64,000 bases of DNA from Clostridium sp. CAG:762 (GCA_000432575.1 HF996829.1:35272-99271), one strand, 5' to 3'; numbered from the stretch's first letter, positions 6,411-26,200 are shown. Notes: a model not told the origin generated them from the sequence alone. Numbers and translations: made by a program.

Positions 6411-6434
6411 TGGTGATAGTCAAAATGTAACTTT

Positions 6435-7286: not shown

Positions 7287-7315
7287 TTTGCCACCAAATA
7301 TAAATTTTATATTCT

Positions 7316-7639: not shown

Positions 7640-7651
7640 AATTAATCACCT

Positions 7652-8194: not shown

Positions 8195-8197
8195 CTG

Positions 8198-9865
8198 TTA
8201 AGACCCAAATGACACGTTTTGGGTCTTAACATCTTGAGGCGTTAGAGCAATTTTAAATTCAGAACCTGTTTTTAATATAAATCTAATTACATTTGGATCT
8301 TTCTCTCCATTTTTTAATACTTCTCCAACTACAATTTTCTCTACAAAATTTTCAAAAGTGTTTTCATCAAATTCCGTTAAAGTGCAAGGAATATTTATAA
8401 TCTTTTCTATTTCTTTTATTTTAGTAGAAATATTTTTATTATCCTCATTTAATTTTTGTAGTTCCTTTAATTCCTCATCTAAATTAGATAATTTTGTTTT
8501 TATTTCTTCTTCTTTTAAATCATAAACTTCTTTTGTAATACTATTATCTAATCTCATATCAACTAATTTTAATAACTTATCTTGTAATACTTTTTTATTG
8601 TTTTCTATTTCGTTAATACTCTTTTGATAATCATTATCATTAATAACACCTTTTATTGTGTTTAAAAGAAGTTCTTTTGTTTTATGCTTATTCTTAACAA
8701 TATTATTATAAAGTTCTATAAACATTTTTTCTAATATATCTTCTCTGATATATCTTGAATCTTTACAATCTTTCTTATCATAGACTCTTTGATAACACAT
8801 CCAATAATAAGGAATAGTACCATCTTTTTTCTTGCTTCCATGTCTTCTAACATAAGTTGTTCCACAAAATCCACAAGTTATTTTACTACTAAAAGGATAC
8901 CTTTTACTATAATTTGTTGGGTGTTTACTTCCTTCAGGTATTACTTTACTACTTCGTTTTTCGTATATCTCCTGTGCCTTATTCCAAACTTCTCTTGTTA
9001 TTATAGGAATATGATGGTCTTTTACATAGTATTTTTCTTTCTCTCCAAAATTTTGAACTGCTCTATGCGAAATAGGATTTTCAATATACCATTTTTGACT
9101 AATTAAATCTCCAACATATTTCTCATTGATAATCATATTCCTTATTCTACTACTTGTCCATCTTTTACCAGTATAAGTTAATATTCCTTTTTCATTTAAT
9201 AATCTTGCTATTGTTTGTGTACCTTTACCATTAATATACCAATCAAATACTTGTCTAACAATTTTGGCTTGTTCTTCGTTTATTTCAAGTTCTTTTGTTT
9301 CTTTATTCCAAACATATCCATATATTCTAGCAATACCATTCATTTCGCCACGTTTCATTTTGGCTCTCATACCCATTTGAACATTTTGAGATGTTGATTC
9401 ACTTTCTGCTTGTGCAAATGCACTATAAAGTGTTAAAAACATTTCGCTATCTAATTCTAGAGTATGAATATTTTCTTTTTCAAAATATACATCTACATTA
9501 TGTTCACGAAGTAATCTAACATATTTTAAAGTATCAAGTGTATTTCTAGCAAATCTTGATATAGACTTTGCTATGATAATATCTATCTTACCATTTAAAG
9601 CATCATCTATCATTCGCATAAATTCTGTTCTTTTCTTAACTTGTGTTCCACTAATACCCTCATCAGCATATACACCAGCAAATTCCCAATCTGGATTAGA
9701 TTTAATATAATTCGTATAATGATTAATTTGTGAAGAATAACTTGTTAATTGTTCTTCGGAATCAGTGCTTACTCTTGCATAAGCACAAACTTTTTTAATT
9801 ATTCTTTTAACGGAATTTTTAATATTATTTTTGAGATTAGCTGCAATAATCTCAACTTGTGCCAT
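8198..9865 (-). CDS. Large serine recombinase (resolvase/invertase N-terminal domain + recombinase domain + zinc ribbon + coiled-coil)
   Basis: AYARVSTDSEEQ catalytic Ser motif, IIIAKSISRFARN, zinc ribbon CGFCGTTYVRR..YYWMC; 555 aa. Confidence 0.9.
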   Translation of the reverse strand: MAQVEIIAANLKNNIKNSVKRIIKKVCAYARVSTDSEEQLTSYSSQINHYTNYIKSNPDWEFAGVYADEGISGTQVKKRTEFMRMIDDALNGKIDIIIAKSISRFARNTLDTLKYVRLLREHNVDVYFEKENIHTLELDSEMFLTLYSAFAQAESESTSQNVQMGMRAKMKRGEMNGIARIYGYVWNKETKELEINEEQAKIVRQVFDWYINGKGTQTIARLLNEKGILTYTGKRWTSSRIRNMIINEKYVGDLISQKWYIENPISHRAVQNFGEKEKYYVKDHHIPIITREVWNKAQEIYEKRSSKVIPEGSKHPTNYSKRYPFSSKITCGFCGTTYVRRHGSKKKDGTIPYYWMCYQRVYDKKDCKDSRYIREDILEKMFIELYNNIVKNKHKTKELLLNTIKGVINDNDYQKSINEIENNKKVLQDKLLKLVDMRLDNSITKEVYDLKEEEIKTKLSNLDEELKELQKLNEDNKNISTKIKEIEKIINIPCTLTEFDENTFENFVEKIVVGEVLKNGEKDPNVIRFILKTGSEFKIALTPQDVKTQNVSFGS

Positions 9866-10199
9866 TTAATACCTCACTTTCACTTTTATTTTTTTTGAAC
9901 TTGCAGTCGTGTTCTCATTAATTATTATACTAAATTTTTGACTAATTCTATAGTCATTAATAAAAACTTTTAATTTTTTCTTTCAACACATAAAATTGTT
10001 TTTCATTAATTAATTCTAATTTTAATAATTTTGATATTATAGATAAATTAATTGTTTCATCAATAATATTATCTATTTCTATTTGTGTTAATATCTTTTC
10101 TTTGTTATCATCTTCTTTCATAGTTAAAATTACCCCCTTTCTTTTTATTATTTTTTAAACTTCATTTTCATAACTAATCTCAAATCCTTTCCGTTAATT

Positions 10200-10619
10200 T
10201 CATCTATAAGGTTTTAACAATTCTTCCATTTCTAATCTTTCTTCTTCAATAGGTGGTATTGTTTCTTCTCGTTTTCCATTCCAAACTTCTACACCATCAG
10301 GATCCACTCTAATATGTGGACCATTTCTACCATTTATTAATTCATCTTCATTATTTGCTATATCTAAAACAGTTATAAATAATTTAATATTGTTATTAGA
10401 ACTATAAGAATTAAGATAACCCTTAATAAATACTTTAGTCCCTTTAACAAAAAAATCTTTATATATTTCATAAAGATTTCGGTTAATATTTAAACTAGAA
10501 TATACTTTTCTTTTATCATATTTAAGAGTGGTTAATCCAAACTTAATATAATCTTGATTATTATCCATTATATTATTAATTGTTCCAGATATAATTATTT
10601 CATTTAAATCTACATTCAT
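10200..10619 (-). CDS. OB-fold protein, possibly SSB-like (139 aa)
   Basis: Weak call: N-terminal b-rich region ISGTINN..FVKGTKVFIKGYL and an acidic C-terminal tail EEERLEMEELL. Confidence 0.3.
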   Translation of the reverse strand: MNVDLNEIIISGTINNIMDNNQDYIKFGLTTLKYDKRKVYSSLNINRNLYEIYKDFFVKGTKVFIKGYLNSYSSNNNIKLFITVLDIANNEDELINGRNGPHIRVDPDGVEVWNGKREETIPPIEEERLEMEELLKPYR

Positions 10620-10759
10620 ATATCATTTCCTTTCGTTTAATTAATTTAAATTATTTAAATAATTTTAAACTTATATTATTTATTATAATTATTTATTAAT
10701 ATTATTTATTCTGTTAGAAGTTATTCGCTATACATATAGGCAGTATCTTGCTATTTAAT

Positions 10760-11032
10760 CTAGAAGATATTTGCTAAATATATTTTTCTAGCACTATCGT
10801 CATTATCAATTTTAAGATAATTATTTCTTCTCAAAGTTGTTATTGAACTAGATATAGTTCTTTTAGATACTTTTAATAAATTACTTAAATATCTATTACT
10901 TGCATAACAATATCCATCTTTCATTGATAAAGTTGTTATTAAGCCCATTAATAGTTTAGTAGTAGAAGATAAAACTTCATCTAGTAAAACTACCATCGGT
11001 ACTTGTATATATTTTAAATTAGTTAAATCCAT
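10760..11032 (-). CDS. HTH protein of the phage replisome-organizer/RepA_N-like type (90 aa from an internal Met; the track ORF extends to 11191)
   Basis: Motif GYCYASNRYLSNLLKVSKRTISSSITTLRRNNYL, paralogous to 18183..18710. A GGAGA RBS lies 8 nt upstream of the ATG at 11030-11032. Confidence 0.5.
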   Translation of the reverse strand: MDLTNLKYIQVPMVVLLDEVLSSTTKLLMGLITTLSMKDGYCYASNRYLSNLLKVSKRTISSSITTLRRNNYLKIDNDDSARKIYLANIF

Positions 11033-11332
11033 AATATCATTCTCCTTTTCTTTAATTTTTTGCAACAAAAAAACTTGTAAACACATATTACAAGCCATAA
11101 CAATTAATAAACGACTTAAAATAAATACACAATGTGAAATAAACACATCTTTAATGGTTGCTTGAAGTAAAACATATAATACATATTTCAATCCCTTTTA
11201 TTCTTTTTGTTTAGTTCTTTGAAATATGTTTTACTTCAAACTAGTTCATCTCATATTTCTATAAGATAGGTTCTAACATAAGCCTCCAATCTTACTGAAC
11301 CTTATTTGCTAACGACTATCTATGTGTCTTCT

Positions 11333-11596
11333 TTAGCAAATGTGATACTCATACATTCCTGTATGATATTCTTTGAATCTTAGATAATTATTATTTTGTA
11401 ATTGTTCTAAGATTTTTCTTAGTCCTTTGTTTTTTATTCGAACTGTCTGTTGAATATCTCCTACATTTAGATGTGAGATAGTTCTTTCAAATCCCTCTGC
11501 ATATAGATATGCAAATATTTCTTTTGCTTTAGGTTTGATATTCTTATCTTCCCATATCTTGTGGTTTGATATATCTAGATGTTTTAAGTTTCTCAT
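11333..11596 (-). CDS. Small winged-helix/HTH DNA-binding protein (87 aa)
   Basis: ..EIFAYLYAEGFERTISHLNVGDIQQTVRIKNKGLRKILEQL.., divergent from the XRE gene. Confidence 0.4.
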   Translation of the reverse strand: MRNLKHLDISNHKIWEDKNIKPKAKEIFAYLYAEGFERTISHLNVGDIQQTVRIKNKGLRKILEQLQNNNYLRFKEYHTGMYEYHIC

Positions 11597-11747
11597 TCAT
11601 ATCTTGTCCTCCTTTCTTTTTGGAAATTAAGTTTCCATAATCCGACAATACATCATAAATATTATATTGTCAACCCTGTTTCCGTTTTTTTCTTGCATAT
11701 TTCTATTTTTTGTTATATAATTAAGTTGTCAGAGGAGATGATTAGGA

Positions 11748-12257
11748 ATGTTAAATAAAAAAAAATCTGATGAGACACTTGCAGAATTAGTAAGAAATGC
11801 ACGAAAAGAAAAAGGATTATCTGCAAGGAAACTAGCTAACCTACTTAATTTAAGTCATACTGAAATAAATAATATAGAGAGTGGTTATAGAGTTAAGCCA
11901 TCAATTATTGTATTAAAAGGATTAGAACAATATTTAGGTATTCCTTTTACTAAATCTGCAAAACTTGTAGGATATTCAAAAGAAACAATAAAATATGGTG
12001 AAGATGAAATTATTGTTAGCTATGAAATGTATGATAAGAAAATAAAAGAATTTAAAGAAGAAATTAGAAATGCCGAAAATACCATTGAATTAAAAAGACA
12101 TATAGCAATGGATACAGAAGAATATTTTAAAGATATACATAATTATTTAAAAGAACAGAAAGATATTGATAAAAAATTATTAGATAAGGCAAATTCTATT
12201 GAAAGATTTTTATCAGAAATACAAAGAAAATACGAGAGTATTTTCAAAGAAAAATAA
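11748..12257 (+). CDS. XRE-family (Cro/CI-type) HTH transcriptional regulator
   Basis: LSARKLANLLNLSHTEINNIESGYRVKPSIIVLKGLEQYLGI. Confidence 0.75.
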   Translation: MLNKKKSDETLAELVRNARKEKGLSARKLANLLNLSHTEINNIESGYRVKPSIIVLKGLEQYLGIPFTKSAKLVGYSKETIKYGEDEIIVSYEMYDKKIKEFKEEIRNAENTIELKRHIAMDTEEYFKDIHNYLKEQKDIDKKLLDKANSIERFLSEIQRKYESIFKEK

Positions 12258-12377
12258 CCTTTTACCATTATTGGTATTAGGTTATTTTTTGTATAAAAAA
12301 GGATATTACGTTTTGTTGCGTTAGCAATGAAAGTAGTAGACTTTTTTCTTTTTTATGAAGTCATAAGACAAAATAAA

Positions 12378-12430
12378 AAAGGCACCAATACTTTTTACGA
12401 TAGTTTACAGTATTGGTGCTTATTGGGTTT
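12378..12430 (+). terminator. Rho-independent terminator (stem GCACCAATACT/AGTATTGGTGC, then a T-rich tail)
   Basis: 11-bp perfect stem downstream of 11748..12257, followed by TTATTGGGTTTTT. Confidence 0.5.
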
Positions 12431-12504
12431 TTAAAGGATCTCCTTTGGCACACTATTCCTAGTTGGCATTATGCCGACTTGGTAGTGTGTTACTATAATG
12501 GAAT

Positions 12505-12545
12505 TATAGTTTTTAAAAACAGATTAACTTTATCAATTAATCTGT
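12505..12545 (-). terminator. Rho-independent terminator for the 12563..13711 gene
   Basis: Stem CAGATTAA/TTAATCTG, followed on the minus strand by TTTTTAAAAA. Confidence 0.5.
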
Positions 12546-12562
12546 TTAATTTAAATAAATAA

Positions 12563-13711
12563 CTATTTTTTCCTAATTGTTAATACAGCAGGATTTACAG
12601 TTCCTTTTTCTTCTGAATCTTCAATACCATATTGTTTATTCCAATATTTTCTATATTCTTCACCTTGTTTTGCAAAATGTGATAGAGCATTTGCAGTAGC
12701 TCCAGCCATAAATCCACTTAATCCTAACTCTTCATTGTATACTTGTTGTTCAGCTTCTTCAAATGAAATACCTTCTTCAAATTTCTTCATCATTGAAATA
12801 GTTGCTTTAACAACAAATACTGAATAACCATCATTACTATTATTATCAGCAAATTGTAACCATTCTTCTGCTGTTTCAGGTTTAACTAAAGTTAATCCCT
12901 CTTTCATTAATGTGTATTTAGCTTTTTTAGCTGCTAAATCTGCACGTTCTATTGCTTTATTTCTTTCTTCTTCGGCTTTTAATCTTCTATCTCTTTGCTT
13001 ATCAACAATAACATCACCAAAGAATTTTCTTTTTGAATCTTCAATATCTTCTGGGCTTCTTCTATCATAGCCATATTCTATATATGGATTAGAATATAGT
13101 TCTTCGCCAGTTTCTTCTAATGTTATAGATGAAATTGCAGAACCATAGCCTATAAATGGTATTCCAGAATGTTCTGTTTCAATATTTGAAAAATAATTTA
13201 CATTTCTTAATGTATCAGTTTCATTTTGCTCAACTCCGTACCACCAAGCTTTATATGAAATTCTTTCCCCAATATGTTTTTTTAGGTTTTCAAACATTCT
13301 AATAGCATTTTTTTCTTTGCTATGTTTTGCAATATATTCAGCAAAAGTCATATCTCCTTCTTCCATTGGTAAGAAAGAACCTGCTTGAGTATGGCATACA
13401 TAATTATAACCATTACATTTCATGTTGCTAATTAGAATTCTATAATCTGGATTATTTCCATATTTTGCTTTAATTTCATCTAAACTATATCTTTTTCCAA
13501 AATAAATCCATCTAGAATAATTTGATTTTTCACCATCATAAGTTTTTTCACCATCTACAACATATTCTTTGTCGTAAAAACGGAATCCTTGCATTTTACC
13601 ATCATTTTCAATTTGCATAGGATTTCTTTCAGTCACTTCTTTTATTGAAGATTCACTAAATAATAGACCTCTGTAAATTTTCTCAACATAAGTTTTAGTT
13701 ATTTTTTCCAT
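12563..13711 (-). CDS. Hypothetical cargo protein (382 aa from MEKITKTY; the track ORF extends to 13780)
   Basis: Strong RBS GAAGGGGGAAATATT upstream of the ATG at 13709-13711. No recognised domains; a charged coiled-coil-like segment KQRDRRLKAEEERNKAIERADLAAKKAK. Confidence 0.55.
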   Translation of the reverse strand: MEKITKTYVEKIYRGLLFSESSIKEVTERNPMQIENDGKMQGFRFYDKEYVVDGEKTYDGEKSNYSRWIYFGKRYSLDEIKAKYGNNPDYRILISNMKCNGYNYVCHTQAGSFLPMEEGDMTFAEYIAKHSKEKNAIRMFENLKKHIGERISYKAWWYGVEQNETDTLRNVNYFSNIETEHSGIPFIGYGSAISSITLEETGEELYSNPYIEYGYDRRSPEDIEDSKRKFFGDVIVDKQRDRRLKAEEERNKAIERADLAAKKAKYTLMKEGLTLVKPETAEEWLQFADNNSNDGYSVFVVKATISMMKKFEEGISFEEAEQQVYNEELGLSGFMAGATANALSHFAKQGEEYRKYWNKQYGIEDSEEKGTVNPAVLTIRKK

Positions 13712-13806
13712 AATATTTCCCCCTTCAGAAAATCGTTTAATATAATAGCATAAATTAACTAGAATGTCAAGCAAATCCAACTGATTTGTATTAAAAGCAG
13801 GGAAAA

Positions 13807-14199
13807 CTATAATAAATTTAATGAATAATAATAATCATATACATTTAATTTTTGGTTAATTATAATATTTATTTCTTCATCATTAAAATCATATTGAAAG
13901 ATTTTAAATAATAATTCTACTAAAAAATTTTGCTTTTCTAATAATGATAATTCCATATATTTAGCTGATATAAATAATAAGTTTTTATATTTAGCAAAGT
14001 TAGTTATTACTTTTTTATAATTTGAATCTAATATTCCTAATACTTCTTTTAATAATCTAATGAAACTTTCGTCATATTTAGTAGAAAAACAATTTTCTTC
14101 AAGTATATGTATTGCTAATCTAACCTTATTAATCCCATTTAAATCATCAATAATATCAACTAAATTCATTACCCTTTCTGTATTATTTTCTAATAGCAT
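13807..14199 (-). CDS. Hypothetical protein (130 aa)
   Basis: ORF only. Confidence 0.35.
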   Translation of the reverse strand: MLLENNTERVMNLVDIIDDLNGINKVRLAIHILEENCFSTKYDESFIRLLKEVLGILDSNYKKVITNFAKYKNLLFISAKYMELSLLEKQNFLVELLFKIFQYDFNDEEINIIINQKLNVYDYYYSLNLL

Positions 14200-14373
14200 A
14201 AATCTTCCACCTTCCTAATTTGCCATTTAAGGCACTTTATTTCAAAGAACAGATAAGAGATTAAGCTTTACCTTAAAACCTCAATATGAGTGATTAAATT
14301 AGGTTTAATCTCGTTTTCTTGTCTTTTTATTTATCACTCAAACAATTAAAAAAATCAAGAGTGTTTTTTAATT

Positions 14374-15669
14374 TTATCTACTTAAATCAAAATCATCTTT
14401 ATCATATTCACCTTCATCATAATCTCTAACTCTTTCTTTGTAATAATCAGGTGCTTCAACATATTCAAATAATTCATCTTGATTAGTTGTTCCTTTAGAT
14501 ATTCTTACAACATCTCTCATATCAAACTCACTATTGTCATAACAATCTTTAACAACTTCAGCAGTTTCATCTTTAGTATAGTCATTACCTCGTTGTAATA
14601 GTTTCCTTAAAAACTTCTTTAATAATTGGAATAGTTCATTTAATCTATACATTAAACTTCTATTTTCTTGTTCTAGATTTTGATTTTCATATTCTAATTT
14701 ACTAATTTCTTTATTATACTTTTGATTTTCTTTTTCAAGTGATTTATAACTATTAGCATAACTATCAACTTCATTAAATATTGTTTGTAGTTTAGGTTGT
14801 AATTCCATTACTTTTTTAGATTCACTAATAACATTATTCATACTATCAAAAGTATCTTTTTTAACTTTAACAAAATCTTTATCAATAATAAGTGTTTGTT
14901 TAGTAGTTTTCATTTTTTCTTCAAAATCAGCCATTGCTTTATCAATTCTATCATTTCTTACATTTAATTCTTGATTAAGTTTTTTAGTAAGTTTTTTATA
15001 TTCCTTTATTTTAATATGCTGATTATCACTACCTTTAATACCTCGTTCTAAATCATAACCTTTTTCAGTTAGTCTTTTATGATACATATCTTGTAATTGA
15101 GATAATTGTAATTTATCTTTGATATATTGTTTTTTAGATATAGTATATCTTTCAGATTTAGTCCTATTATCTAATTTCTTAACAAGTGGAACAACAACAC
15201 AATGAATATGTGGTATTTCTTCATCTAAATGGACAGTTGCATAAAGTATTTGTTCTTTCTTATAGCCTAAATCATTATAAACAAATTCCATACAAGTATC
15301 TGCCCAATCTTTTATTTGTTCTCTAGACATATCTTTAAAGAAATTATGTGACGCAGTCATAACTAATTCATCAGCAACACAATTTCTTGAACTATTTAAC
15401 ATTTCGTGATATCTTTTCTTTCTATCAGCTCGTTCAGTTTTCATTCGTTCATTGTGTTCCTTTTTATATTCTTTTGTTAATTCATCAAAACCTTTAACAT
15501 ACTTAACATTTAATGGAACAAGTTCTATATTATTCTTACTTAATTCTATTTTTATATCTTTATTTGATTGATATACTTTCTTTTCACGTTTATTATGTGA
15601 TCCTATTTGTGCTAAATCAGGTATAGTCATAATAGGTTCACTTCTAAATATTGCATAATTTAAATTCAT
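14374..15669 (-). CDS. MobV-family (Mob/Pre, pMV158 MobM-like) relaxase
   Basis: Hallmark HxDE..PHxH motif (ATVHLDEEIPHIHCVVVPL), an N-terminal catalytic region, and a long C-terminal coiled coil. Confidence 0.8.
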   Translation of the reverse strand: MNLNYAIFRSEPIMTIPDLAQIGSHNKREKKVYQSNKDIKIELSKNNIELVPLNVKYVKGFDELTKEYKKEHNERMKTERADRKKRYHEMLNSSRNCVADELVMTASHNFFKDMSREQIKDWADTCMEFVYNDLGYKKEQILYATVHLDEEIPHIHCVVVPLVKKLDNRTKSERYTISKKQYIKDKLQLSQLQDMYHKRLTEKGYDLERGIKGSDNQHIKIKEYKKLTKKLNQELNVRNDRIDKAMADFEEKMKTTKQTLIIDKDFVKVKKDTFDSMNNVISESKKVMELQPKLQTIFNEVDSYANSYKSLEKENQKYNKEISKLEYENQNLEQENRSLMYRLNELFQLLKKFLRKLLQRGNDYTKDETAEVVKDCYDNSEFDMRDVVRISKGTTNQDELFEYVEAPDYYKERVRDYDEGEYDKDDFDLSR

Positions 15670-15971
15670 ATATTGTTTCTCCTTTCTTTTTTACACAACA
15701 AAAAAAGATATGTAATTAAACATACCTTACATTGCAACTAATCAAAATTAATATTTTTACTTTTACAATCATACTTATTTATTGAATTATATGATTACAA
15801 GAACACGACACTTTAATTATCTTAAAACTGATACTATAACACTCCAATTGCTTTGATTATCTTTTTTATCAGTAATATCTAGTTTTACATAATCTTTATA
15901 AAAATCAACAATTCCTTTAAAATAAAGTATATCTTGTATATTTTTATTCAATGTCATTTTATACAAAACAC

Positions 15972-16283
15972 TTCTGCATTCTTGCTAGGAACTGATTCAA
16001 TAATTCTAAACATTCCTTCAATATCAACAACGTCAGTCATACGATATTTTCCATCTTGTGCTTTTAATTTTAAAGCGTGACAATTTGTCACGGTTTCATT
16101 TCCTTCTTCTTTTAAACGTTGCTTAAGTTTTCTCCAATAGGCTTGCTTATCCTTACTTTCCGAAATAACTCCAACAAAATCAACAACACTTATAAAATAT
16201 TTTTCTTGTTCCTTATCCCAAACAGTTCTAATTGTTTCATTATTAAACATTTTATTTACTAAATGCATTTTATCTTGATTCAT
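15972..16283 (-). pseudogene. N-terminal part (Bro-N domain) of the split Bro-N/DinD-like gene
   Basis: MNQDKMHLVNKMFNNETIRTVWDKEQEKYFISVVDFVGVIS..TNCHALKLKAQDGKYRMTDVVDIEGMFRIIESVPSKNAEVF, then 3 element-derived codons and a stop (track ORF 15954..16283). Confidence 0.65.
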
Positions 16284-16397
16284 AAGATACCTCCTTTGCT
16301 GTATATATTATATCAAATATTTGTTCTTTTTTCAACATTTGTATAAGTAGTTTATCAATTATTTTATGTACACATTGTCGCAAGTTACGACAAAGTT

Positions 16398-18008
16398 CTA
16401 ATTATTCAGTATACTAAATTTATAGATAATTTCTATGTTTCTATCTTTATCTATAATAATTTTATCTATTAAAGCCCCAATTAATTCTCTTGATGGATTA
16501 TCTATATCAATTAATTTTTTTATTTTATCTTCGTAGTCTTTTATTTCTGACTTATTAACTTTCTTTTCTTCTTTTGAATCTTGTAGACTTTGAATTTTTT
16601 CTCTTATTCTAACTAGAGAATTTTCTGTTTCTCTAGAAATTCTTAAATACATTTCTTCAGATACTATGCCATAAAATTTATCTTGATATAACATATCTAA
16701 CTTACTAATTAATGATTTTTCTTGCTTTCGCAAATCATTTATATTGTTGTTAACTTCACTATTATCTTTTTTATTAATACTTTTAGATATTTCTGATATA
16801 TCTAATTTATTTAAATACTTCTTACAAGTATTTCTAATAACTTCTAGCAATGCTTCTTCTAATTTATCATACGGACTAAAATGAGGTTCACACATTCTTC
16901 TTTTAGGATCTCTTGAATATCTATTACAATTAATAGTCCAATAATCATGATTTTTTCTATAAGAAATTGTTAAAGTATTGCCACATTCCTTACAATATAA
17001 TAAATTTTCAAATAGTCTTTTTTCTCTCTTAGTAATAATAGTTTTAGTAGTTCTTTTAATATTATTTTGAACACTTTCAAATATAAATCTATCTACTAGT
17101 GGTTCATGGGTATTTTTAACTATATCCCAATTACTTTTCGGTAATGATTTTTTCTTTTTGGATTTATATGATACTTTAGTTTGTACACTTTGTACCATAT
17201 CACCAACATACATTTGATTTTTTAAAATCTTTTTAACAGAAGAAATAGTCCACATAGGATTATATTTAGCTTTTGAATTAGGATTCTTTTTCTTCAAACT
17301 ACTAGGTGTTTTAATATTATTATCATTCAAATAAGTGGTTATTTCAGAAAGTCCTACACCGTTATAAGCCATTTCAAATATCTTTTTTACTACCCATGCA
17401 TACTCTGGATCTGGTATTAAGTGCCCTTTATCATTTGGATCTCTTAAATATCCATAACTTGGAGCACTTCCAATAAATTTACCATTTCTCCTTTTGTCAT
17501 TTAAAACATTACGAATTTTAATAGAATTTTGTTTACTATAATAATCATTACAAGCAAATAACCATGTTGCTGAATCATTACTTGCTTGATTAATCGCATT
17601 ATCGTATCCTTCCAACATAGAAATAAATCTTATTCCATTTTCTGGAAAGAAGGTTTCAACATAATATCCTGTTAAAATATGATCTCTACCTAATCTTGAT
17701 AAGTCTTTTACTATTACAAGATTAATTCTTTTGGCTTTAATATCTTCAATTAATCTCTGAAATCCTGGTCTATCAAAAGTAGTACCAGAATATCCATCAT
17801 CTACATATTCATCTACAAAAATAAATCCTTTTTCTTTGATAAAATTCATTAGTATATTTCTTTGATTAAGGACACTCTCACTTTCAGATTCGTAAGATTT
17901 GCCTTCATCAGCTTCTGATAATCTTATATAAATTCCTGCTTTGTAGTAATCTGGCATCACATTTAAAGTGTTATACAAGCTTACTCTCCTTTCCTTGTTG
18001 TATAACAA
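16398..18008 (-). CDS. Large serine recombinase (second copy, outer element)
   Basis: GIYIRLSEADEG catalytic Ser motif, VIVKDLSRLGRD, zinc ribbon CKECGNTLTISYRKNHDYWTINCNRY..RRMC; 536 aa. Confidence 0.9.
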   Translation of the reverse strand: MLYNKERRVSLYNTLNVMPDYYKAGIYIRLSEADEGKSYESESESVLNQRNILMNFIKEKGFIFVDEYVDDGYSGTTFDRPGFQRLIEDIKAKRINLVIVKDLSRLGRDHILTGYYVETFFPENGIRFISMLEGYDNAINQASNDSATWLFACNDYYSKQNSIKIRNVLNDKRRNGKFIGSAPSYGYLRDPNDKGHLIPDPEYAWVVKKIFEMAYNGVGLSEITTYLNDNNIKTPSSLKKKNPNSKAKYNPMWTISSVKKILKNQMYVGDMVQSVQTKVSYKSKKKKSLPKSNWDIVKNTHEPLVDRFIFESVQNNIKRTTKTIITKREKRLFENLLYCKECGNTLTISYRKNHDYWTINCNRYSRDPKRRMCEPHFSPYDKLEEALLEVIRNTCKKYLNKLDISEISKSINKKDNSEVNNNINDLRKQEKSLISKLDMLYQDKFYGIVSEEMYLRISRETENSLVRIREKIQSLQDSKEEKKVNKSEIKDYEDKIKKLIDIDNPSRELIGALIDKIIIDKDRNIEIIYKFSILNN

Positions 18009-18182
18009 CTAAAGCCAATTAAATTATACCATACAAATTTAATTTGGCACATTGTATCAATCACTATTTACCTTACTTTTAATAAATTTAATTACCAGTT
18101 CATAGAAATTAGGAGAATCATCTTTGAAAGTTTCTATTATATTAAACATAAGCCACCTCATTTAAGTATATGAGTGTCTTTA

Positions 18183-18710
18183 TCAATTTATATCTTCCTC
18201 CATTTCTTTAAAACTCTCTAGCTTTTTCTCCATCTCTTTTTGTTCTTCCTTAGTTGCTTCTTTTGATTCAATAGGTTCACCATGCCAGTATTCAACACCA
18301 AATTCATCCACATAATAAATTTTATCTAATATATCTTTTTTATTTTTATTATATTTATTATAATGGTTAAAATTATTTTGAATACTAGTATTAATATTTC
18401 CTTGAATACTTGTTATTCTTTTCTTTAATACCTCGGATAATTTTATTATCCTCTTTGAATTATTTGTTTCACTATTATTAATTTCTATATCAATATATCC
18501 ATTTTTTGATAAACTACTTATACTCTTTGATACAGTTGGTTTGGTACAATCAAACTTCTTCATAAAATATCTATTAGTAGGCCAACAATAGCCATTTTTC
18601 TTACATAGTGACACAATGTCTATTAATAATATTCTCTCAAAGTAAGTTAATCTATTATCTCCTAATACTGATTCTGGTAATACTAAACTTATAAATGGTT
18701 CTTTTTCCAT
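18183..18710 (-). CDS. HTH protein of the replisome-organizer/RepA_N-like type (175 aa), paralog of 10760..11032
   Basis: GYCWPTNRYFMKKFDCTKPTVSKSISSLSKNGYI; sits immediately upstream of the recombinase. Confidence 0.5.
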   Translation of the reverse strand: MEKEPFISLVLPESVLGDNRLTYFERILLIDIVSLCKKNGYCWPTNRYFMKKFDCTKPTVSKSISSLSKNGYIDIEINNSETNNSKRIIKLSEVLKKRITSIQGNINTSIQNNFNHYNKYNKNKKDILDKIYYVDEFGVEYWHGEPIESKEATKEEQKEMEKKLESFKEMEEDIN

Positions 18711-19105
18711 TATTTCTCCAATATAAGATTATCAAGTTTAGTAGTTCCATATTATCCTCCTTTCTTTACCAGTCTTTTTAGGAACACATAAAAAGAACTG
18801 AACACATTAGTCCACAACAAAAATAAGGGAATATTTCCAATCTTTTTTGTTGGATTAATATGTATTCAGTTCTTCACTGATTAATTATTATACATTATTC
18901 TTTAATGTATAATAAAGCTTTCTAATTTCTTTTTAATATTTACTATTTTATATTTATATATGTTTATATGTAATAGTCACATTCCCGTATGACTAGTTTA
19001 ATTATAACACTAATTATTGTATTTTCAATATGTAATCGTTAGACAATATCCGACAAATTATTTTATTTGTTAAAAATCATTAACACTAATTTGAGTGTTG
19101 TCAAC

Positions 19106-19390
19106 TCAAATACCATCATTATTTTCTTGCTGACTTTTTACAAAACTATTATATTCATCTACCTTAGTATTATAATCATTTAAAATATCTTTTATTAATG
19201 ACACAAGCCCTTCTTCTTCTGGAGTTTTATCATCAAATTCTTTGTTAATTGTGTATTTACTCTTTAAATTTTCATTTAACAAAAATTTTACCAATTCTTT
19301 AAAATCTATATCTTTCGAAAAATTATATGTTTCAATAAGATTTTTATCATGATATAGTTTTATATTATCTTGTTCTTTAATTATTTCCAT
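19106..19390 (-). CDS. Hypothetical small protein (94 aa)
   Basis: ORF only; overlaps the downstream gene start. Confidence 0.35.
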   Translation of the reverse strand: MEIIKEQDNIKLYHDKNLIETYNFSKDIDFKELVKFLLNENLKSKYTINKEFDDKTPEEEGLVSLIKDILNDYNTKVDEYNSFVKSQQENNDGI

Positions 19391-21842
19391 ATTCCTCTTC
19401 TCCTAACACATTTCCATATTTTTTATTTCTATTAGAAAATGATTTTCTACCACCATCTAAAATATTCATTATTTCTTCTTTATCATCCTGCGATTCTATT
19501 AAATAATTTTTATAATCTATTTCACCATCATTAGTCACAAATATATAATTAAATGCATCACCATATACCGCAACTGTAGGATTATGAGTTACAAAAATTA
19601 ATTGCTTAATTTTTTTCTTTTCTTTTATTATTGAAACTAGCTTTTGACTAATATAATCATTATCAATATTATCTTCAGGTTGGTCAAATAGTAATATTAA
19701 TTCGTTAAGTTCAAATAACATATCTAAATATGCTACCGACTTCATTCCTGGAGATTCCTTTGATAAATCAGTAATAGTTCTCTTATCAATTTGTTCAAAC
19801 AAATCCTTTTTTACCTTTATATCATCAATATTTATTTTTGAATTAATTTTAAAAAACTCTTTTTTAGGTTGAAATATTTCATTTTGTATGAATTTTGACA
19901 ATTCTGCGGATAAACTGTTGATATTAGCTTTTAGATTTCTTTCTCCATTAATATACTTCATTATTAAACTAAAATCACTTGAATCACTTTTTACTTTCGA
20001 AATTGTACTTGCTATTTTTTCATAAATTGTATCAATAAGATTATCTGGTACTTCATATGAAGTTGTAAATAAATATGGCATTTTAACATATTTCTTTATA
20101 ACAGGGCTTTCTTGTTTAAAATTATCAAGTAAATAATTTAACTTTTTAGAATCTAATATTATTTTAAAATTTCTTTTTATTATATTAATAATACTATTTA
20201 AATTTTTTCGTTGTTCTTGTATTATTTTTTTAGATTCATCTCTTTCACTTATAATTTTGTTTGTTCTCTCATTACTATTTTTTACAACTTCACTATATTT
20301 ATCAAGTAAAAATTTGTATTCACTATATTTTTCAATTATTGTACTATTAATATTTTTTAATTCATCAATATTTAATCCATAATTTTCAAATTCTTTTACT
20401 AATTCATTTAGAGATTTTGAAAGACTATTTATTTTAATAGATACTGAGTCACTGCTTATTTCTGCATAAGTATCATATGTATAATAGTCAGTTTTATCTT
20501 TTAAAATCTTTAAAATTGATGTTATATTTTTATAATTGATATCAATTGGTTTTACATTTTTAGCAATATCTATTATTTGATTAATATATGATAAATCATA
20601 ATCATCTATTTTAGGAAAATATGAAGATATTTGCTTATTAGCAATATCAGGATTTTTATATATTTCAGAAATCTTATCTTGTTCTAATACAGCAAGTGAA
20701 GATAATTGACCAGGATTAATTTTAATTCCATTATAATCAATTCCCAAAACGTTTTTAATATTAAAATTTTTATAATCTGTTGTTATTTTATTATTAGATT
20801 TATTTAAATTCTCAATTATTGCTAATAGTAATGACTTGCCACTTCCTCTTTTTCCAATTATTACATTTAAACCAGGCGAAAAATTAATATCCTTGTTTTT
20901 ACCATTAAGTTCAAAAGAAATACTACTAATAATATTAGGAGGAATTGGTATTTGTTCTTCAGCAGATTTAATAATTCTCGATTGTGGATCTAATACAGCT
21001 AATTCAAATGTTTCAAAAAAGTATTCCAATGAGCCAAAAATATAATTATATATTTGTGGATTATATGGTTCAGCATTATGCCAATCACTAAATTTAAAAT
21101 AACTAAAATAATTACCATAATTTATTATATAATCATATATTTTTTTACAATCCTTATCTGCTATTTCATACTTTTTATCATTTATCTTTTTCCTTATTTC
21201 AGATATAATGAATTTCTTTTCTTTTTCACTTTTATCTTTTAAATTTTTTTCAAACGCTTGAGTTTGTTCATAAAACCCTAACGCCCAATTATCACATGAC
21301 CTTTCATTAAAAGAGGCTGTAACATCAAAAGCACTAAATATTTTGTACATTGCATATTTATTTATATCATTAGACTCTTCTATTGATATTTTATCTAATA
21401 TACTTAAAATACCTCTTGCTTTATTTCCTTCAGGTACAAGGATTATTTTACATTTTAATTGTACAATACAATTTATTATTTCGTGAAATTTTGGTTTATT
21501 ATCATTCTTATAAAGATCATTCAATATTTTTTCCAATCTATTTCCATCTAGATTGTTATCGAAATAAACTCCCATTTGAAAAAAATCTTTATCATTTACA
21601 TAAACATCTAATTCAGTTCCATTTATTATTTCAATTGGTTTGTCTATAATATATTTCCGAATATCATCATAATATGATGATGAATAGACATCATGATCAG
21701 TAATGCTAAAAATGTTTATCCCCTTATCTAAAAGAGCATCCACATAATCCTTAGCACTCATTTGCTTTACTCTAGTTTTATCCTTACTTTTTGAATAATA
21801 TGAATGCATATGCATATCACATTTTAACCATTGTTGTTTCAT
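19377..21842 (-). CDS. PHP-domain phosphoesterase fused to an ABC/AAA-type ATPase (single-gene Ppl-like antiphage architecture)
   Basis: N-terminus MHMHSYYS..FSITDHD (PHP His/Asp motifs). Walker A GLNVIIGKRGSGKSLLL, Walker B LILLFDQPEDNID, and H-loop FVTHNP; 821 aa. Confidence 0.55.
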   Translation of the reverse strand: MKQQWLKCDMHMHSYYSKSKDKTRVKQMSAKDYVDALLDKGINIFSITDHDVYSSSYYDDIRKYIIDKPIEIINGTELDVYVNDKDFFQMGVYFDNNLDGNRLEKILNDLYKNDNKPKFHEIINCIVQLKCKIILVPEGNKARGILSILDKISIEESNDINKYAMYKIFSAFDVTASFNERSCDNWALGFYEQTQAFEKNLKDKSEKEKKFIISEIRKKINDKKYEIADKDCKKIYDYIINYGNYFSYFKFSDWHNAEPYNPQIYNYIFGSLEYFFETFELAVLDPQSRIIKSAEEQIPIPPNIISSISFELNGKNKDINFSPGLNVIIGKRGSGKSLLLAIIENLNKSNNKITTDYKNFNIKNVLGIDYNGIKINPGQLSSLAVLEQDKISEIYKNPDIANKQISSYFPKIDDYDLSYINQIIDIAKNVKPIDINYKNITSILKILKDKTDYYTYDTYAEISSDSVSIKINSLSKSLNELVKEFENYGLNIDELKNINSTIIEKYSEYKFLLDKYSEVVKNSNERTNKIISERDESKKIIQEQRKNLNSIINIIKRNFKIILDSKKLNYLLDNFKQESPVIKKYVKMPYLFTTSYEVPDNLIDTIYEKIASTISKVKSDSSDFSLIMKYINGERNLKANINSLSAELSKFIQNEIFQPKKEFFKINSKINIDDIKVKKDLFEQIDKRTITDLSKESPGMKSVAYLDMLFELNELILLFDQPEDNIDNDYISQKLVSIIKEKKKIKQLIFVTHNPTVAVYGDAFNYIFVTNDGEIDYKNYLIESQDDKEEIMNILDGGRKSFSNRNKKYGNVLGEEEYGNN

Positions 21843-21917
21843 TTATACTACCTCCACTACATAAAAAGCGCAATACAAAAACTTAAACAAGTGTAAGCCT
21901 GTACTAGCGCTTTAAAA

Positions 21918-23081
21918 TTATTTATTTCCCTTTGCTCTATTATGTGTCTGACATAACATTTGACAATTATCTATATCTGTAGATCCGCCTTTACTCCATG
22001 CAGTAACATGATCTGCATCCATTTCTTTTAATTCCCAAATTCTATTTTTATTATTATCATTTCCTATTGCACATAATGGACAATTACTTATATCTTTTAA
22101 TTTTGCATCTTGAGTTTGTTTTTCATATACAACTCGCTTTGTATTATCATCAAATACTCTAATATTCAAAAGTTTAGTATCTTTACATCCACCTAATATA
22201 TACTCACATATACCTTTAGTATCTTTAACTTGTGGATCAGCATATAATTTACATAATATTTCAGAAACCTTATTAGGATCATATGAATTGTTATGATATG
22301 TTTCATATAATCTTCCCCATTCAAGACCTCTCATATCTGATTTTACATCTTTAAATACAGTTGATACCCAAGTTATTACAGAATTGAAATATGTTCTTAA
22401 TTCTGTAATATTAGTATCAAATCTATGTTGACTCATGTAACTATCAATATTACCTTTACTTACCCAATTAAGAGCTGTTGCAAGATATTCTTGCCTATTT
22501 ACATCACCTTTTATATATGCGCTCCATTTTTGAATATTTGCATTTTGAGAATTAGAAAATTCTTCACGAGCCATAGTTACAAAAGGTCCAGAATAAATAG
22601 CATTTAATAATTCTTGATTATTTAGTGGAACACCTACAATATTAATTGTTTTAAACCATTCTTTAATTTCTGATTCTTCACCCTCACAAATATAAATTGT
22701 TAACTGTGAATCAAGAATCTTATCTTGTAAATTTTTAGCCAGTCCATCAAAATATTGCTCCATACAATGTTCATCTTTAATAGCAAATTTATCTGTAATA
22801 AATCTTCCAAAACTAGTAACTCTTTGTTGCCCATCTAAAATTTCATATTTATCTTCTCCAACTTTAACAAAATATAATAAACCTAGTGGATAACCTTTTA
22901 ATAATGAATTAATTACAGCAACATCCCTTTTTCCATCAGCATAAATATAGTTTCTTTGATATTCAGGTTGAATTGTTAATTTTCCACCCCATCCAAATAA
23001 GCCTTTTCCTTCATATTCATTATAAACAAATCCTTCATTTATATCTCTAACAGTTAAATCAGTTTTCAATATTGTTTTCAT
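21918..23081 (-). CDS. DUF262 (ParB-like) + C-terminal HNH nuclease: GmrSD-like type IV restriction endonuclease
   Basis: [14 protein letters not shown] (DGQQR motif) at the N-terminus and [31 protein letters not shown] (HNH) at the C-terminus. Confidence 0.7.
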
Positions 23082-24180
23082 TATTTACCTCCTTAAATTC
23101 TATTAATATTCTAGCATATACTCTTTTACCATTTATTAATGGACATGCAAGTCTTTCTCCTTTAAATGGAATGCCGACAATAAAAGCATCATATCCAGCT
23201 GATGCCAGAAGTCCAACAATCCTAAATTGTTCTGGATTATATTTATCCAAAAAAGTAATTGGAACTCCCATAACACCTTTGTAATCTGCCGGAATTGAAT
23301 CTGTAAAAGAAATATCAATAGCATCATAATTATCGTATTTTGGATATCCATGTTCCCTTATTTGTTTATGTTTACTATATTTTAAATTATCTTCCATTGT
23401 CATTAATTGTAATGGTTGATGTCTCCTTCCATGTTCTATATTGGTAAGCCATAAACAATTATTAGTAGAAACTATTCTAAGTCCTTCTTCATTTATGCGT
23501 GCTTCTGTACCATACAATTCATATGATTTTGGGACAATAAATCCCGAAATCCATCTACCCATTCCATTGCCTAACCATGCTCTATTCGTTCTTATCAAAG
23601 TAAATACTTCTTTATATGATATACAATTAATATTGCCAATTAATAAAAATTGTTTGTTTGCTTCTACTACCCACGATAAAAATTCCCTAAATAAACTAAA
23701 TGGTGGATTAGTGATTATTATATTAGCTTCATTGCGAAGTTTTTTTACTTCTTCAGATCTAAAATCACCATCACCTTCTAGATAATCCCACTTTAAATCT
23801 TCAATATCTATTCTTCCTGAATTGTTTTCATCTCTATCTAAAATAAATACCTTCCCATGTGTTTTAGTTTTATTTTTATCAAATTTTGGAGATTTTTCTT
23901 CAAAAAGCGATAGCTGAACCATTACATTTTCTTTTTTATCATTTGCATAACTAGTACTTATAAGTTTTTTTAATCCAAACCTTTCAAAGTTTTGTGCAAA
24001 AAATTTTGTAAAATTACTCCATTCTGGATCATCACACGGAAGTAAAACTATTTTGTCTCTAAACAAATTAGGATTATATTCTAAATATGCATTAACCTCC
24101 TTTTGTATATCTGAATATAATGTATAAAACTCATCATTTTTTGATTCTTTTGCTTTCTTTAGCATTTCTCTTTTTGGCAT
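23059..24180 (-). CDS. N6-adenine-specific DNA methyltransferase
   Basis: Motif [11 protein letters not shown]; an N-terminal [17 protein letters not shown] region; 373 aa. The start overlaps GmrSD-like gene by 23 nt. Confidence 0.7.
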
Positions 24181-24184
24181 ATAA

Positions 24185-24841
24185 TCACTTCCTACTAACT
24201 AAAATTTTTTCTAACTTATGTTCTAATTGATATAAAGTATTTTCACTAGATACATCTCCACCTAGGTCTTCAAGTGCTGAATATAATATTTGACGTTTTG
24301 ATGGATTTGAATTATTTGGTACCTCAATATCCGTATTTTTCTCATATATACCTAAAGTTCCATCTTCATTTGTTTTAGAATAATAATCTTTTCCAGTTAA
24401 ACTTGAATGAAAACTAATATTTTTAAAATGATGTCTATTTTTTGACAACATTAAAGCATCTTTCTTATCTTCTATTTCCTTTGCTGTTTCTTTCCATAGA
24501 TGAAGTCTATCAGTTGTTCCATTTATTTCAGTCATACTTTCAAATGCAGAATACATTTCTTCTGGACTCATATGGTAGAATTCTCTTACTCTAATTTTAT
24601 CTCCTATTTTTTCTTTACTTCTTAATTCTGGATTTATAGTATCTATGAATTTGTGTAATTTTATATCAGTTAATCTCTCAGTTACATCAAAAGTTGCATA
24701 AATATGAAAAGAAAAAGGAACCGCTTCAGAATTATTTAATTGTTTTACTCTTAGTTCAACATCATCTGCATATCCAATTTTGATATATTCTGGAAATGAT
24801 GGATTAGTTAATATATAAATTACACCACATTTTTCTTTCAT
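24185..24841 (-). CDS. GIY-YIG (T5orf172-type) domain protein, possible nuclease partner of the methyltransferase
   Basis: GVIYILTNPSFPEYIKIGYA...R..QLN at the N-terminus; C-terminal half unknown. Confidence 0.5.
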   Translation of the reverse strand: MKEKCGVIYILTNPSFPEYIKIGYADDVELRVKQLNNSEAVPFSFHIYATFDVTERLTDIKLHKFIDTINPELRSKEKIGDKIRVREFYHMSPEEMYSAFESMTEINGTTDRLHLWKETAKEIEDKKDALMLSKNRHHFKNISFHSSLTGKDYYSKTNEDGTLGIYEKNTDIEVPNNSNPSKRQILYSALEDLGGDVSSENTLYQLEHKLEKILVSRK

Positions 24842-24856
24842 ACACTCTCACTCCTA

Positions 24857-24886
24857 AAGTTTTAACTCAATAATATTATATCATAC
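24857..24886 (-). promoter_or_regulatory. Candidate extended -10 promoter (TGaTATAAT) for the GIY-YIG/MTase/GmrSD operon
   Basis: The minus strand reads ..AATTGTCGAATTGTATGATATAATATTATTGAG.. about 35 nt upstream of the ATG. Confidence 0.3.
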
Positions 24887-25081
24887 AATTCGACAATTTT
24901 TTAATTTTGACATTGAAATAATTACAAATTTTAATTTTCAAAATAGGTTTTGGGAGTATTCCCACAATAGAATTTCGTACAGGAGTACAAATTCATTGCT
25001 TGCTAGACAATAAATTTACTCCCAAACCAATTAATTCACATTTAAAAACTCTATCAGTTTCATCTGACAGAGTTCTACTTT

Positions 25082-25381
25082 TTAATAATATTTCTTCAAT
25101 ATCATTGGATTATCTTTTACTATTACTAAATTATATTTTATTTTTAATATTTCTTTTATCTTAGGTATAAGTCTACTAATATCACATCTACAATTAAATA
25201 TATCTACAGCAGAGTTAATATGATTTATTAAATTATATTCTGATAAGCAATATCTACTATATGAATTTGCTAAATAAAATACTACTAAATCAGGTATAAC
25301 ATATTTATTTAAATAATCATTAACATTGTTATAGAAAGGCAAATATATTTCTTCAAATTCTTTATCAGTTATATCACACAT
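25082..25381 (-). CDS. Hypothetical protein (99 aa)
   Basis: ORF only; 8-nt overlap with the tnpV-like gene. Confidence 0.35.
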   Translation of the reverse strand: MCDITDKEFEEIYLPFYNNVNDYLNKYVIPDLVVFYLANSYSRYCLSEYNLINHINSAVDIFNCRCDISRLIPKIKEILKIKYNLVIVKDNPMILKKYY

Positions 25382-25724
25382 AGATATACTCCTTTAAAAC
25401 TATTTCTTCTACCATATTTTTTATATTATTCATTTTACCTATCCATAACATTTTATTACTACTTTTTAATTCTTCAGTAATATTTTCTTTTTCAGCTAGG
25501 TCTTTAATTAACTTCTTCACCATCTCCATAACAATAGTATCAACATTATGAAGATATTCATTTAATGTATCACTAACAAGTAAATCAAAATATAATCCTA
25601 ATTTGTAATTCTTAATATAATTTAATCTTAATAACCCATATTTTCCTATATTATATTGTTTTTTATTTTCTAATATTAAATCTGGCAATAAATAATCACC
25701 ACTCTTAGTGTAACTAATATTCAT
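25374..25724 (-). CDS. tnpV: TnpV-family transposon protein (Tn4451 TnpV-like)
   Basis: SYTKSGDYLLPDL..GKYGLLRLNYIKN..YFDLLVSDTLNEYL..ITEELKSSNKMLWIGKMNNIKNMVEEIVLKEYIY matches the conserved TnpV pattern (GDYxxPDL, GxYG, GTLxxHL, VTExLKAxDxxxWxxxMNxI..AEEIV). Confidence 0.6.
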   Translation of the reverse strand: MNISYTKSGDYLLPDLILENKKQYNIGKYGLLRLNYIKNYKLGLYFDLLVSDTLNEYLHNVDTIVMEMVKKLIKDLAEKENITEELKSSNKMLWIGKMNNIKNMVEEIVLKEYIYV

Positions 25725-25919
25725 AACAGTTCTCCATTTCTTTCTATATTTATTTGGCTTTAATTGTTATACATTCGTTACACAATGACTATACTTCTAA
25801 TTTCAAATTTGGTAATAAATAATCACCAATTCTAGTGTAACTAATGCTCATAATTTTCCTCATTTCTTTCTATTTTATTTGGCTTTAATTGTTATACATT
25901 CGTTACACAATGACTATCG
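25684..25919. repeat. Imperfect tandem duplication (2 x about 110 bp, period about 127 bp, about 90% identical) of the right terminus, including the terminal inverted repeat and the 5' end of tnpV
   Basis: Copy 1 spans 25684-25794 and copy 2 spans 25811-25919. Both contain GGCTTTAATTGTTATACATTCGTTACACAATGACTAT, and copy 2 encodes a 21-codon remnant MSISYTRIGDYLLPNLKLEV*. Confidence 0.7.
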
Positions 25920-26200
25920 CCACCCCCTGCATTCAAGTGATTAGACACCACAACCACATTAGGATTGTTACCAAACGCATCCAACACCAAATTAGTTCTT
26001 TCATTTGGAGCCAATGTCTTATCACTATCACGCGTCAATGCAACAGGTATCCCCAGTTCCTTAAACCTATCATACATATACTTAGATATCATCAAATTAT
26101 AATCTTTTTCCTTCAAATTATTTCCCAAAGCACCCGAATCACTACCTCCATGACCAGGATCAATTACAATACCTACTAAAGATTTATCCATGTTTATCAC
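25920..26200 (-). pseudogene. N-terminal segment of the split N-acetylmuramoyl-L-alanine amidase (Amidase_3)
   Basis: MINMDKSLVGIVIDPGHGGSDSGALGNNLKEKDYNLMISKYM..GIPVALTRDSDKTLAPNERTNL..VVVVSNHLNAGGG, then an element-derived DSHCVTNV* (track ORF 25892..26200). Compare B. subtilis CwlC IFIDPGHGGSDPGA...FLSIHVNSGGGTG. Confidence 0.8.

Follow-up and report, generated by a model that had tools for sequence, protein, structure and literature searches.

We analysed positions 19106–24841 of a 64,000-nucleotide (nt) stretch of DNA from Clostridium sp. CAG:762, a human-gut metagenome assembly; further in the text the whole stretch is referred to as the window. Five open reading frames (ORFs), all on the minus strand, were obtained in this interval by ORF calling and translation (Table 1). 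From upstream to downstream, they encode a T5orf172 protein, a DNA methyltransferase (MTase) of the EcoRI family, a DUF262-HNH nuclease, a PHP-ATPase and the small partner of the latter, orf94. The proteins are recorded identically as CCZ57396–CCZ57400 of Clostridium sp. CAG:762. A first-pass annotation, made from the sequence, had described the interval as an island of four co-directional antiphage genes. These four genes are real, with the predicted minus-strand coordinates and sizes of 821, 387, 373 and 218 amino acids (aa), and the motifs named for them, HxH (read HMH), DHD, GKRGSGKS, FDQPEDN, DGQQR and NPPF, are all legible in the translations, but the fifth gene, orf94, had been overlooked. 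Likewise, overlapping starts and stops had been ascribed to the whole set; in fact overlaps occur at two of the four junctions, 23 nt between the MTase and nuclease genes and 14 nt between those of the ATPase and orf94, and the other two are gaps of 4 nt (T5orf172/MTase) and 75 nt (nuclease/ATPase). As a description of the locus the annotation was thus partly confirmed and largely correct; its interpretation was supported in part, and about half of it proved wrong.

The nuclease was searched for in species-representative genomes, where at least 579 loci were found at ≥70% identity, in Bacillota, Bacteroidota, Patescibacteria, Chloroflexota, Pseudomonadota, Spirochaetota and other phyla. Neighbourhood counts given below refer to the best 80 of these loci. 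The genes of the interval accompany the nuclease with very unequal frequency: 72 of 80 loci, spread over many phyla, have an EcoRI-family MTase encoded on the same strand upstream of the nuclease, four have T5orf172 along with the pair, and none has the PHP-ATPase. Since co-occurrence with the nuclease differs in this way, the view of the four genes as one co-evolving system was rejected. We consider it likely, taking the explanation developed below as a whole, that the cargo consists of three independent and separable defence modules placed side by side, namely the MTase–nuclease pair, the PHP-ATPase with its partner, and the T5orf172 protein.

Domains were assigned by Pfam, PADLOC and NCBIfam profile searches of the window proteins. 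The MTase matches Pfam EcoRI_methylase (2.8e-128) and PADLOC MTase_II (2.1e-103), has SAM-binding and catalytic NPPF motifs and is encoded by a complete ORF, so that it is intact and not a pseudogene. The nuclease consists of an N-terminal DUF262 domain (a ParB-like NTPase with DGQQR; Pfam GmrSD_N, 2.7e-19) and a C-terminal zinc-ribbon HNH domain (CxxC...CxxxC; PF01844, 4.6e-08), and it matches the PADLOC REase_II model PDLC03418 over residues 6–387 of 387 (1.2e-91). The DGQQR motif, D357-H358, N372, N381 and the four cysteines C334/C337/C373/C377 are invariant in its family. No match to GmrSD_C/DUF1524 (PF07510) was found in the nuclease by the Pfam search, and sequence and profile searches against PDB yielded only marginal matches, to BrxU (7p9k, E = 0.023) and to an HNH domain.

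The linkage of the MTase and the nuclease is nearly universal. In six of the eight loci without an upstream MTase, less than 250 nt of sequence precedes the nuclease before the contig end. The distance between the two genes is at most 20 nt in 60 loci, and 31 of those have a 4-nt ATGA overlap. Plasmid-borne homologues in Enterococcus, Pseudarthrobacter, Macrococcoides and Variovorax, at 38–68% identity, retain the pair without T5orf172; for those of actinobacteria a similarity of 60–63% was seen. Therefore the DUF262-HNH nuclease is the partner of the MTase, and the two form a restriction-modification (R-M) system. The first-pass annotation had taken the nuclease for a type IV enzyme acting on modified DNA and had paired the MTase with the GIY-YIG protein; given the linkage and the full-length match to a type II restriction endonuclease (REase) model, both assignments fail, and with them falls the notion of an island active against unmodified as well as hypermodified phage DNA. 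The comparison with PADLOC models that had been proposed there returned Ppl for the 821-aa protein, as expected, and REase_II, end to end, for the nuclease. In the R-M system the MTase would mark host DNA with N6-methyladenine (m6A), and the nuclease encoded by the overlapping gene would cut DNA lacking the mark; the latter activity is suggested by the type II REase match and by the BanLI system.

By annotation, protein sizes and gene order, BanLI of Bifidobacterium animalis subsp. lactis is the probable CHARACTERISED relative of the pair. In REBASE it is listed as type II/IIS with the site RTCAGG. Its MTase, EcoRI-like and 41.7 kDa in size, is encoded ahead of a 43.5-kDa REase that bears the annotation DUF262 domain-containing protein; in strain CNCM I-2494 the genes banLI.M and banLI.R adjoin BALAC2494_1403. 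By single-molecule real-time sequencing, m6A was located on one of the two strands of the asymmetric site, RTC(m6A)GG, and the cloned system reduced the plating of P1vir about 10-fold (PMC3990576, PMC13091528). Thus the two systems have in common an m6A MTase of about 42 kDa, a DUF262 REase of about 43.5 kDa and the order M then R. BanLI also resides on an integrated element, and its antiphage effect is modest. The variable segments of the window MTase, described below, may however confer a specificity other than RTCAGG.

The genes preceding the nuclease vary in two further loci. A gene for an AAA_13/AAA_15 ATPase and one for a DUF2130 protein lie directly upstream of the nuclease in L049 (37–3260) and L065 (6898–9999). 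In L065 they separate the MTase from the nuclease, and in L049 there is no MTase within 3.2 kb. They might represent a further accessory module, or else an alternative set of partners.

Conservation of the two proteins was profiled in 78 sequences. The nuclease is conserved evenly, with a mean identity of 75% to the window protein (range 70–97%), no indels and no variable region. The mean identity of the MTase is 57%, and two of its segments are hypervariable, VS1 (aa 201–240) and VS2 (aa 321–373). MTases adjacent to nucleases that are 95–98% identical turn out to be mosaics: the catalytic core is kept, whereas VS1 and VS2 are represented by unrelated alleles with indels, in varied combinations. 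Allele classes were defined for 60 loci. The identity of VS1 is bimodal, below 40% or above 60%; there are 14 classes of VS1 and about 40 of VS2, which occur in 52 combinations. Identity in VS1 and VS2 correlates with that of the nuclease at 0.11 and 0.24, respectively. No covariation of nuclease columns with the VS1 class was found beyond permutation (maximum adjusted mutual information, AMI, 0.15; permutation 95th percentile 0.15), and MTase columns flanking VS1 reach 0.5–0.8 AMI with the same classes.

Several loci depart from the simple order of one MTase and one nuclease. Two EcoRI-family MTases in tandem precede a single nuclease in four loci (L034, L035, L036 and the Variovorax plasmid L020). 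The VS classes of the first and the second MTase always differ in such loci, and one class of the first MTase joins different classes of the second. Nuclease genes without an adjacent MTase are found in L049 and L082. In L008, a metagenomic copy, the MTase (1611–2830) is frameshifted relative to that of L001 (6803–8023), as its A8 tract is shorter by 1 nt (GATAAAAAAAAT), and the adjacent nuclease is intact; the frameshift may have arisen in assembly or may reflect phase variation, as in mod genes of type III systems.

VS1 and VS2 are probably target-recognition elements. Given a near-constant nuclease and reassorting MTase segments, we infer that the MTase determines target specificity, as in type III systems, and that the nuclease would be a constant, nucleoside triphosphate (NTP)-gated cutting subunit. 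The pattern seems to be that of type I or type III systems, with specificity in the modification subunit and a constant nuclease subunit, and not that of two independently specific type II enzymes. The family is currently filed as ordinary type II in both REBASE and PADLOC. We tentatively propose that it may be an R-M architecture that has escaped recognition, similar to type III but assembled from different parts. In such a system the EcoRI-family "Mod" would dictate the target via two reassorting recognition segments. The "Res", composed of a ParB-like NTPase and an HNH domain, would have no specificity of its own, and nucleotide-gated clamping or sliding would couple sites before cutting.

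The pair shares with type III systems (Mod and Res, e.g. EcoP15I) a variable MTase that would bear the specificity, a constant NTP-binding nuclease subunit and translational coupling of the genes; judging from BanLI, methylation of a single strand of an asymmetric site is shared as well. It is not a member of type III, however: its nuclease is a ParB-like DUF262 NTPase with HNH instead of a superfamily 2 helicase with PD-(D/E)xK, and its MTase belongs to the EcoRI family and not to the Mod-type beta class. Similarly, the nuclease resembles GmrSD, BrxU and SspE in having an N-terminal DUF262 domain with DGQQR and a C-terminal nuclease of the His-Me-finger type, but its C-terminus is Pfam HNH, where these proteins have DUF1524/GmrSD_C. 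Moreover, GmrSD and BrxU act alone on modified DNA, whereas the window nuclease is tied to a cognate MTase.

The same data may be read in terms of a classical type II or IIS system, where the nuclease reads a fixed site of its own, all MTase variants methylate this site, and the VS segments are an irrelevant part of the surface. The type II REase model of PADLOC and the listing of BanLI as type II(S) with a defined site are in its favour. The even conservation of the nuclease, including its middle region, fits one shared specificity, and loci with two tandem MTases resemble type IIS systems. On the other hand, MTases accompanying nucleases of 95–98% identity differ in non-homologous VS classes with indels; the segments lie C-terminal to NPPF, where the recognition domain is expected in this class of MTases; and the same class of the first MTase is combined with different classes of the second in the two-MTase loci. 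An autonomous nuclease would be a hazard in L049 and L082, where no MTase adjoins it, and in L008, where the MTase is frameshifted. The constant nuclease, the modular MTase and the lack of covariation between them argue, indirectly, against independent recognition of the site by the nuclease. We regard the classical type II system as possible but doubtful.

An SspE-like mechanism seems improbable. Here the nuclease would sense m6A on self DNA, and the mark would activate it, licensing NTPase-driven nicking of unmarked invaders. SspE (DUF262 with DUF1524) is described as dependent on host phosphorothioate marks for its activity (PMC9646914; PMC12707154), and the nuclease considered here is also a DUF262 NTPase tied to a modification enzyme. 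However, its nuclease domain is HNH and not DUF1524, and pre-methylation of the plasmid in the BanLI study raised the efficiency of transformation slightly, 1.8-fold. The model of the first-pass annotation, a GmrSD/BrxU-like type IV enzyme next to a type II pair of the MTase and the GIY-YIG protein, is very improbable: DUF262 with DGQQR is indeed common to GmrSD, BrxU and SspE, BrxU is a weak PDB match, and type II REases of the GIY-YIG superfamily do exist (Eco29kI, Hpy188I), but the C-terminus of the nuclease is a classical HNH without GmrSD_C/DUF1524, its linkage to the MTase is often translational as well as nearly universal, and T5orf172, rare at nuclease loci, is also found without an EcoRI-family MTase.

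The second module consists of the PHP-ATPase and orf94. In the former, a PHP phosphoesterase domain (aa 1 to ~290) is followed by an ABC ATPase of the SMC/Rad50/RecF type with a coiled-coil insert (aa ~300–810). Its profile matches are AAA_21, a sub-threshold PHP match of 20.8 bits and PADLOC Ppl (PDLC02208, 2.2e-18). The metal ligands of the PHP domain and the catalytic and ATPase motifs are intact, and a structural check confirmed the PHP fold, so the earlier reading of this protein as a Ppl-related fusion of PHP with an ABC/SMC-type ATPase was upheld. In NCBIfam it scores 211 bits with TrlF (cutoff 350), 87.3 bits with Ppl (NF042955; cutoff 1000) and 71 bits with Spaf_1101 (cutoff 475), and hence it is a distant relative of these three families. 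Nothing relevant was found in the literature on TrlF, the closest NCBIfam family.

Homologues of the PHP-ATPase with 100, 76, 49 and 46% identity are each followed by an ORF of 89–94 aa that overlaps the stop of the ATPase gene by 14 nt, and this small ORF is kept in all five loci examined. Their surroundings are unrelated: one is in a twin element, another adjoins genes for a DEAD/MZB helicase and a HinfI R-M system, a third belongs to a tyrosine-integrase element and a fourth to a chromosomal island. The small proteins are 43–63% identical to each other; no family match for orf94 was found in Pfam, PADLOC or NCBIfam. Given the conserved overlapping ORF and the architecture of the Ppl type, the PHP-ATPase and orf94 are a two-gene variant in the Ppl/TrlF/Spaf_1101 superfamily.

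NTPs keep Ppl inactive, and depletion of nucleotides together with 3'-OH ends sets it off; it is described as a single gene (PMC12904381; PMC11482910). The window protein is similar to it in the N-terminal PHP phosphoesterase, the C-terminal ABC/SMC-like ATPase and the location in defence neighbourhoods, and differs in being accompanied by an overlapping gene for a protein of about 90 aa. On the model of Ppl, exonuclease activity on phage DNA ends, regulated by nucleotides, is the probable role of the PHP domain, and the obligatory partner would be a regulator or an adaptor.

The fourth gene had been assigned to the T5orf172 type of the GIY-YIG superfamily, in agreement with its match to Pfam T5orf172 (1.6e-10). 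The protein also matches PADLOC PDC-S57 (9.3e-55, positions 3–144 of 221 of the profile), which has the status of a single-gene defence candidate only. Conserved residues of its N-terminal part are G-x-x-Y, KIGY, R31 and R86-E87-F88. A second, C-terminal module (aa ~130–215) is strongly conserved, NRHxF...LT...YY..T...GTL...PN...PSK, and has no Pfam match in 17 family members. An m6A reader of the RAMA/DUF4357 type was considered for this module and rejected, given the absence of a Pfam match in these members and an hhalign probability of 0.3% with a RAMA-containing MTase. The gene is a lineage-specific addition upstream of the R-M pair. At 73% identity, homologues are found downstream of type III R-M genes, and at 59% identity they stand alone among housekeeping genes, in both cases without an EcoRI-family MTase as a neighbour; this, together with the presence of T5orf172 in so few nuclease loci, speaks against the MTase and the GIY-YIG protein as an R-M pair. 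Comparison with phage and plasmid collections was uninformative (no phage matches, two partial plasmid matches). The protein would be a stand-alone candidate defence nuclease or DNA binder.

An Amidase_3-LysM gene is interrupted by a mobilisable serine-recombinase element, of which the interval would be the defence cargo, and the earlier proposal of cargo carried by a site-specific element of this kind was borne out. The insertion, with its junctions and genes, is listed in Table 1. Imperfect inverted repeats, GATAGTCAttgTGTAAC / GATAGTCAaaaTGTAAC, mark its termini. When the insertion is removed in silico, the joined halves encode a 404-aa protein in which Amidase_3 is complete (1–173 of 174) and four LysM repeats are present. 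The element had been placed in a sporulation gene. It does split a gene, which is that of the cell-wall Amidase_3 hydrolase with four LysM repeats; this gene adjoins yabP and yabQ, but its best NCBIfam matches are generic LysM hydrolases, and CwlD is matched at only 9.7e-4.

Table 1. Features of the studied interval and of the carrier element (window coordinates)
Feature	Coordinates	Strand	Details
T5orf172 protein	24185..24841	-	218 aa
EcoRI-family MTase	23059..24180	-	373 aa, ORF intact
DUF262-HNH nuclease	21918..23081	-	387 aa
PHP-ATPase	19377..21842	-	821 aa
orf94, partner of PHP-ATPase	19106..19390	-	94 aa
Carrier insertion, ~19.5 kb	6408..25921	.	junction sequences; splits Amidase_3-LysM gene
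TnpV, left-end gene	25374..25724	-	Pfam TnpV 3.4e-37
HTH_36/DnaD_N-like DNA-binding protein, backbone gene bounding cargo slot	18183..18710	-	Pfam; position kept in L001-L008
Large serine recombinase	16398..18008	-	Pfam Resolvase, Recombinase, Zn_ribbon_recom
MobV-family relaxase	14374..15669	-	NCBIfam MobV 1.2e-31, above cutoff
5' part of split Amidase_3-LysM gene	25922..26200	-	Pfam Amidase_3 1.7e-19; join test
3' part of split Amidase_3-LysM gene	5463..6407	-	join test
Second large serine recombinase	8198..9865
HTH_36 protein paired with second recombinase	10760..11191
XRE-type repressor	11748..12257		opposite strand
Bro-N protein	15954..16283
405-aa ORF, C-terminal Tad4 domain (type I Thoeris inhibitor)	12563..13780	-	Pfam 8.3e-21

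The same element, 99.97% identical, occupies the same site in another strain (L021), where the flank is 97% identical, and related elements are found in the homologous amidase gene of other species. The trio T5orf172–MTase–nuclease is conserved in close nuclease relatives (L001–L016), all of which adjoin an Amidase_3 gene or fragment, and the fourth position varies. On the same backbone, from TnpV to the HTH_36–recombinase genes, the slot of the ATPase contains Gabija (PADLOC GajA 6e-188, GajB 2e-198). When the element is compared with its sister at the DNA level, the break falls exactly at the start of the ATPase. Other relatives have, near the trio, Thoeris (ThsA/ThsB) with a Fic protein and a McrBC-type system, or AbiU by a type II-A CRISPR-Cas system. 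The PHP-ATPase module thus sits in an exchangeable cargo slot, the place of Gabija in sister elements.

The element may be compared with clostridial mobilisable transposons of the Tn4451/Tn4453 type, which carry catP and TnpX, and with elements that interrupt sporulation-related genes. By gene content, the window element is similar to Tn4451/Tn4453 in TnpV, a large serine recombinase, a Mob/Pre (MobV) relaxase and precise insertion within a gene. It differs in having defence cargo instead of catP, in a recombinase shorter than TnpX, and possibly in being two tandem elements. The latter is suggested by the presence of two HTH_36/serine-recombinase pairs, and the insertion may therefore consist of two tandem or nested elements that share one outer pair of ends; a search of the insertion for right-end sequences found only one. 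The left end is duplicated in tandem (~125 nt; 25795–25917 and 25668–25792). The outer copy carries the start of a TnpV gene that shares only 85% identity with the inner TnpV gene. Neither L021 nor L001 has the duplication, which suggests that a second element integrated at the left junction of a related one already in place. With the Tad4-domain ORF, the element would carry an anti-defence gene beside its defence cargo.

The following points weigh against the explanation in terms of three modules with an MTase-directed R-M pair. The T5orf172 protein probably shares a transcript with the MTase, and since it lies 4 nt from the MTase start, a functional link within the lineage is conceivable. 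A promoter and terminator scan of the locus stayed at background (72 sites versus 61.6 expected) and was uninformative. As no solved relative of the MTase was found in the PDB search, VS1 and VS2 could not be placed on a DNA-binding surface. The AlphaFold2 (AF2) model of the nuclease, for which only homologues of ≥87% identity were admissible, had a pLDDT of 41.5; it was unusable and was not used. The basis on which BanLI was assigned, described above, is also to be counted here. Finally, because the PHP-ATPase reaches none of the curated cutoffs for Ppl, TrlF and Spaf_1101, transfer of the Ppl mechanism is an analogy.

Taken by itself, the island is nothing unusual on a mobile element; what makes it interesting is the atypical R-M architecture and the conserved partner of the PHP-ATPase. 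For annotation, DUF262 should not be taken as type IV by default, as here the gene neighbourhood overrules the call based on the domain. If cutting is indeed directed by the MTase, the family would constitute a new mechanistic class of R-M systems present in hundreds of species, and a source of programmable specificity. The PHP-ATPase with its small partner is a putative two-gene variant of a system, Ppl, whose mechanism is only now being worked out. One family of serine-recombinase elements, with the same amidase target and with whole defence systems exchanged in one slot, offers a tractable natural example of cargo exchange.

Two observations concern the window at large. No tRNA genes were found in the whole 64 kb. 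Gene orientation changes from minus to plus at ~40.5 kb, and the GC skew changes sign, with the cumulative minimum at ~41–42 kb, as expected near a replication origin.

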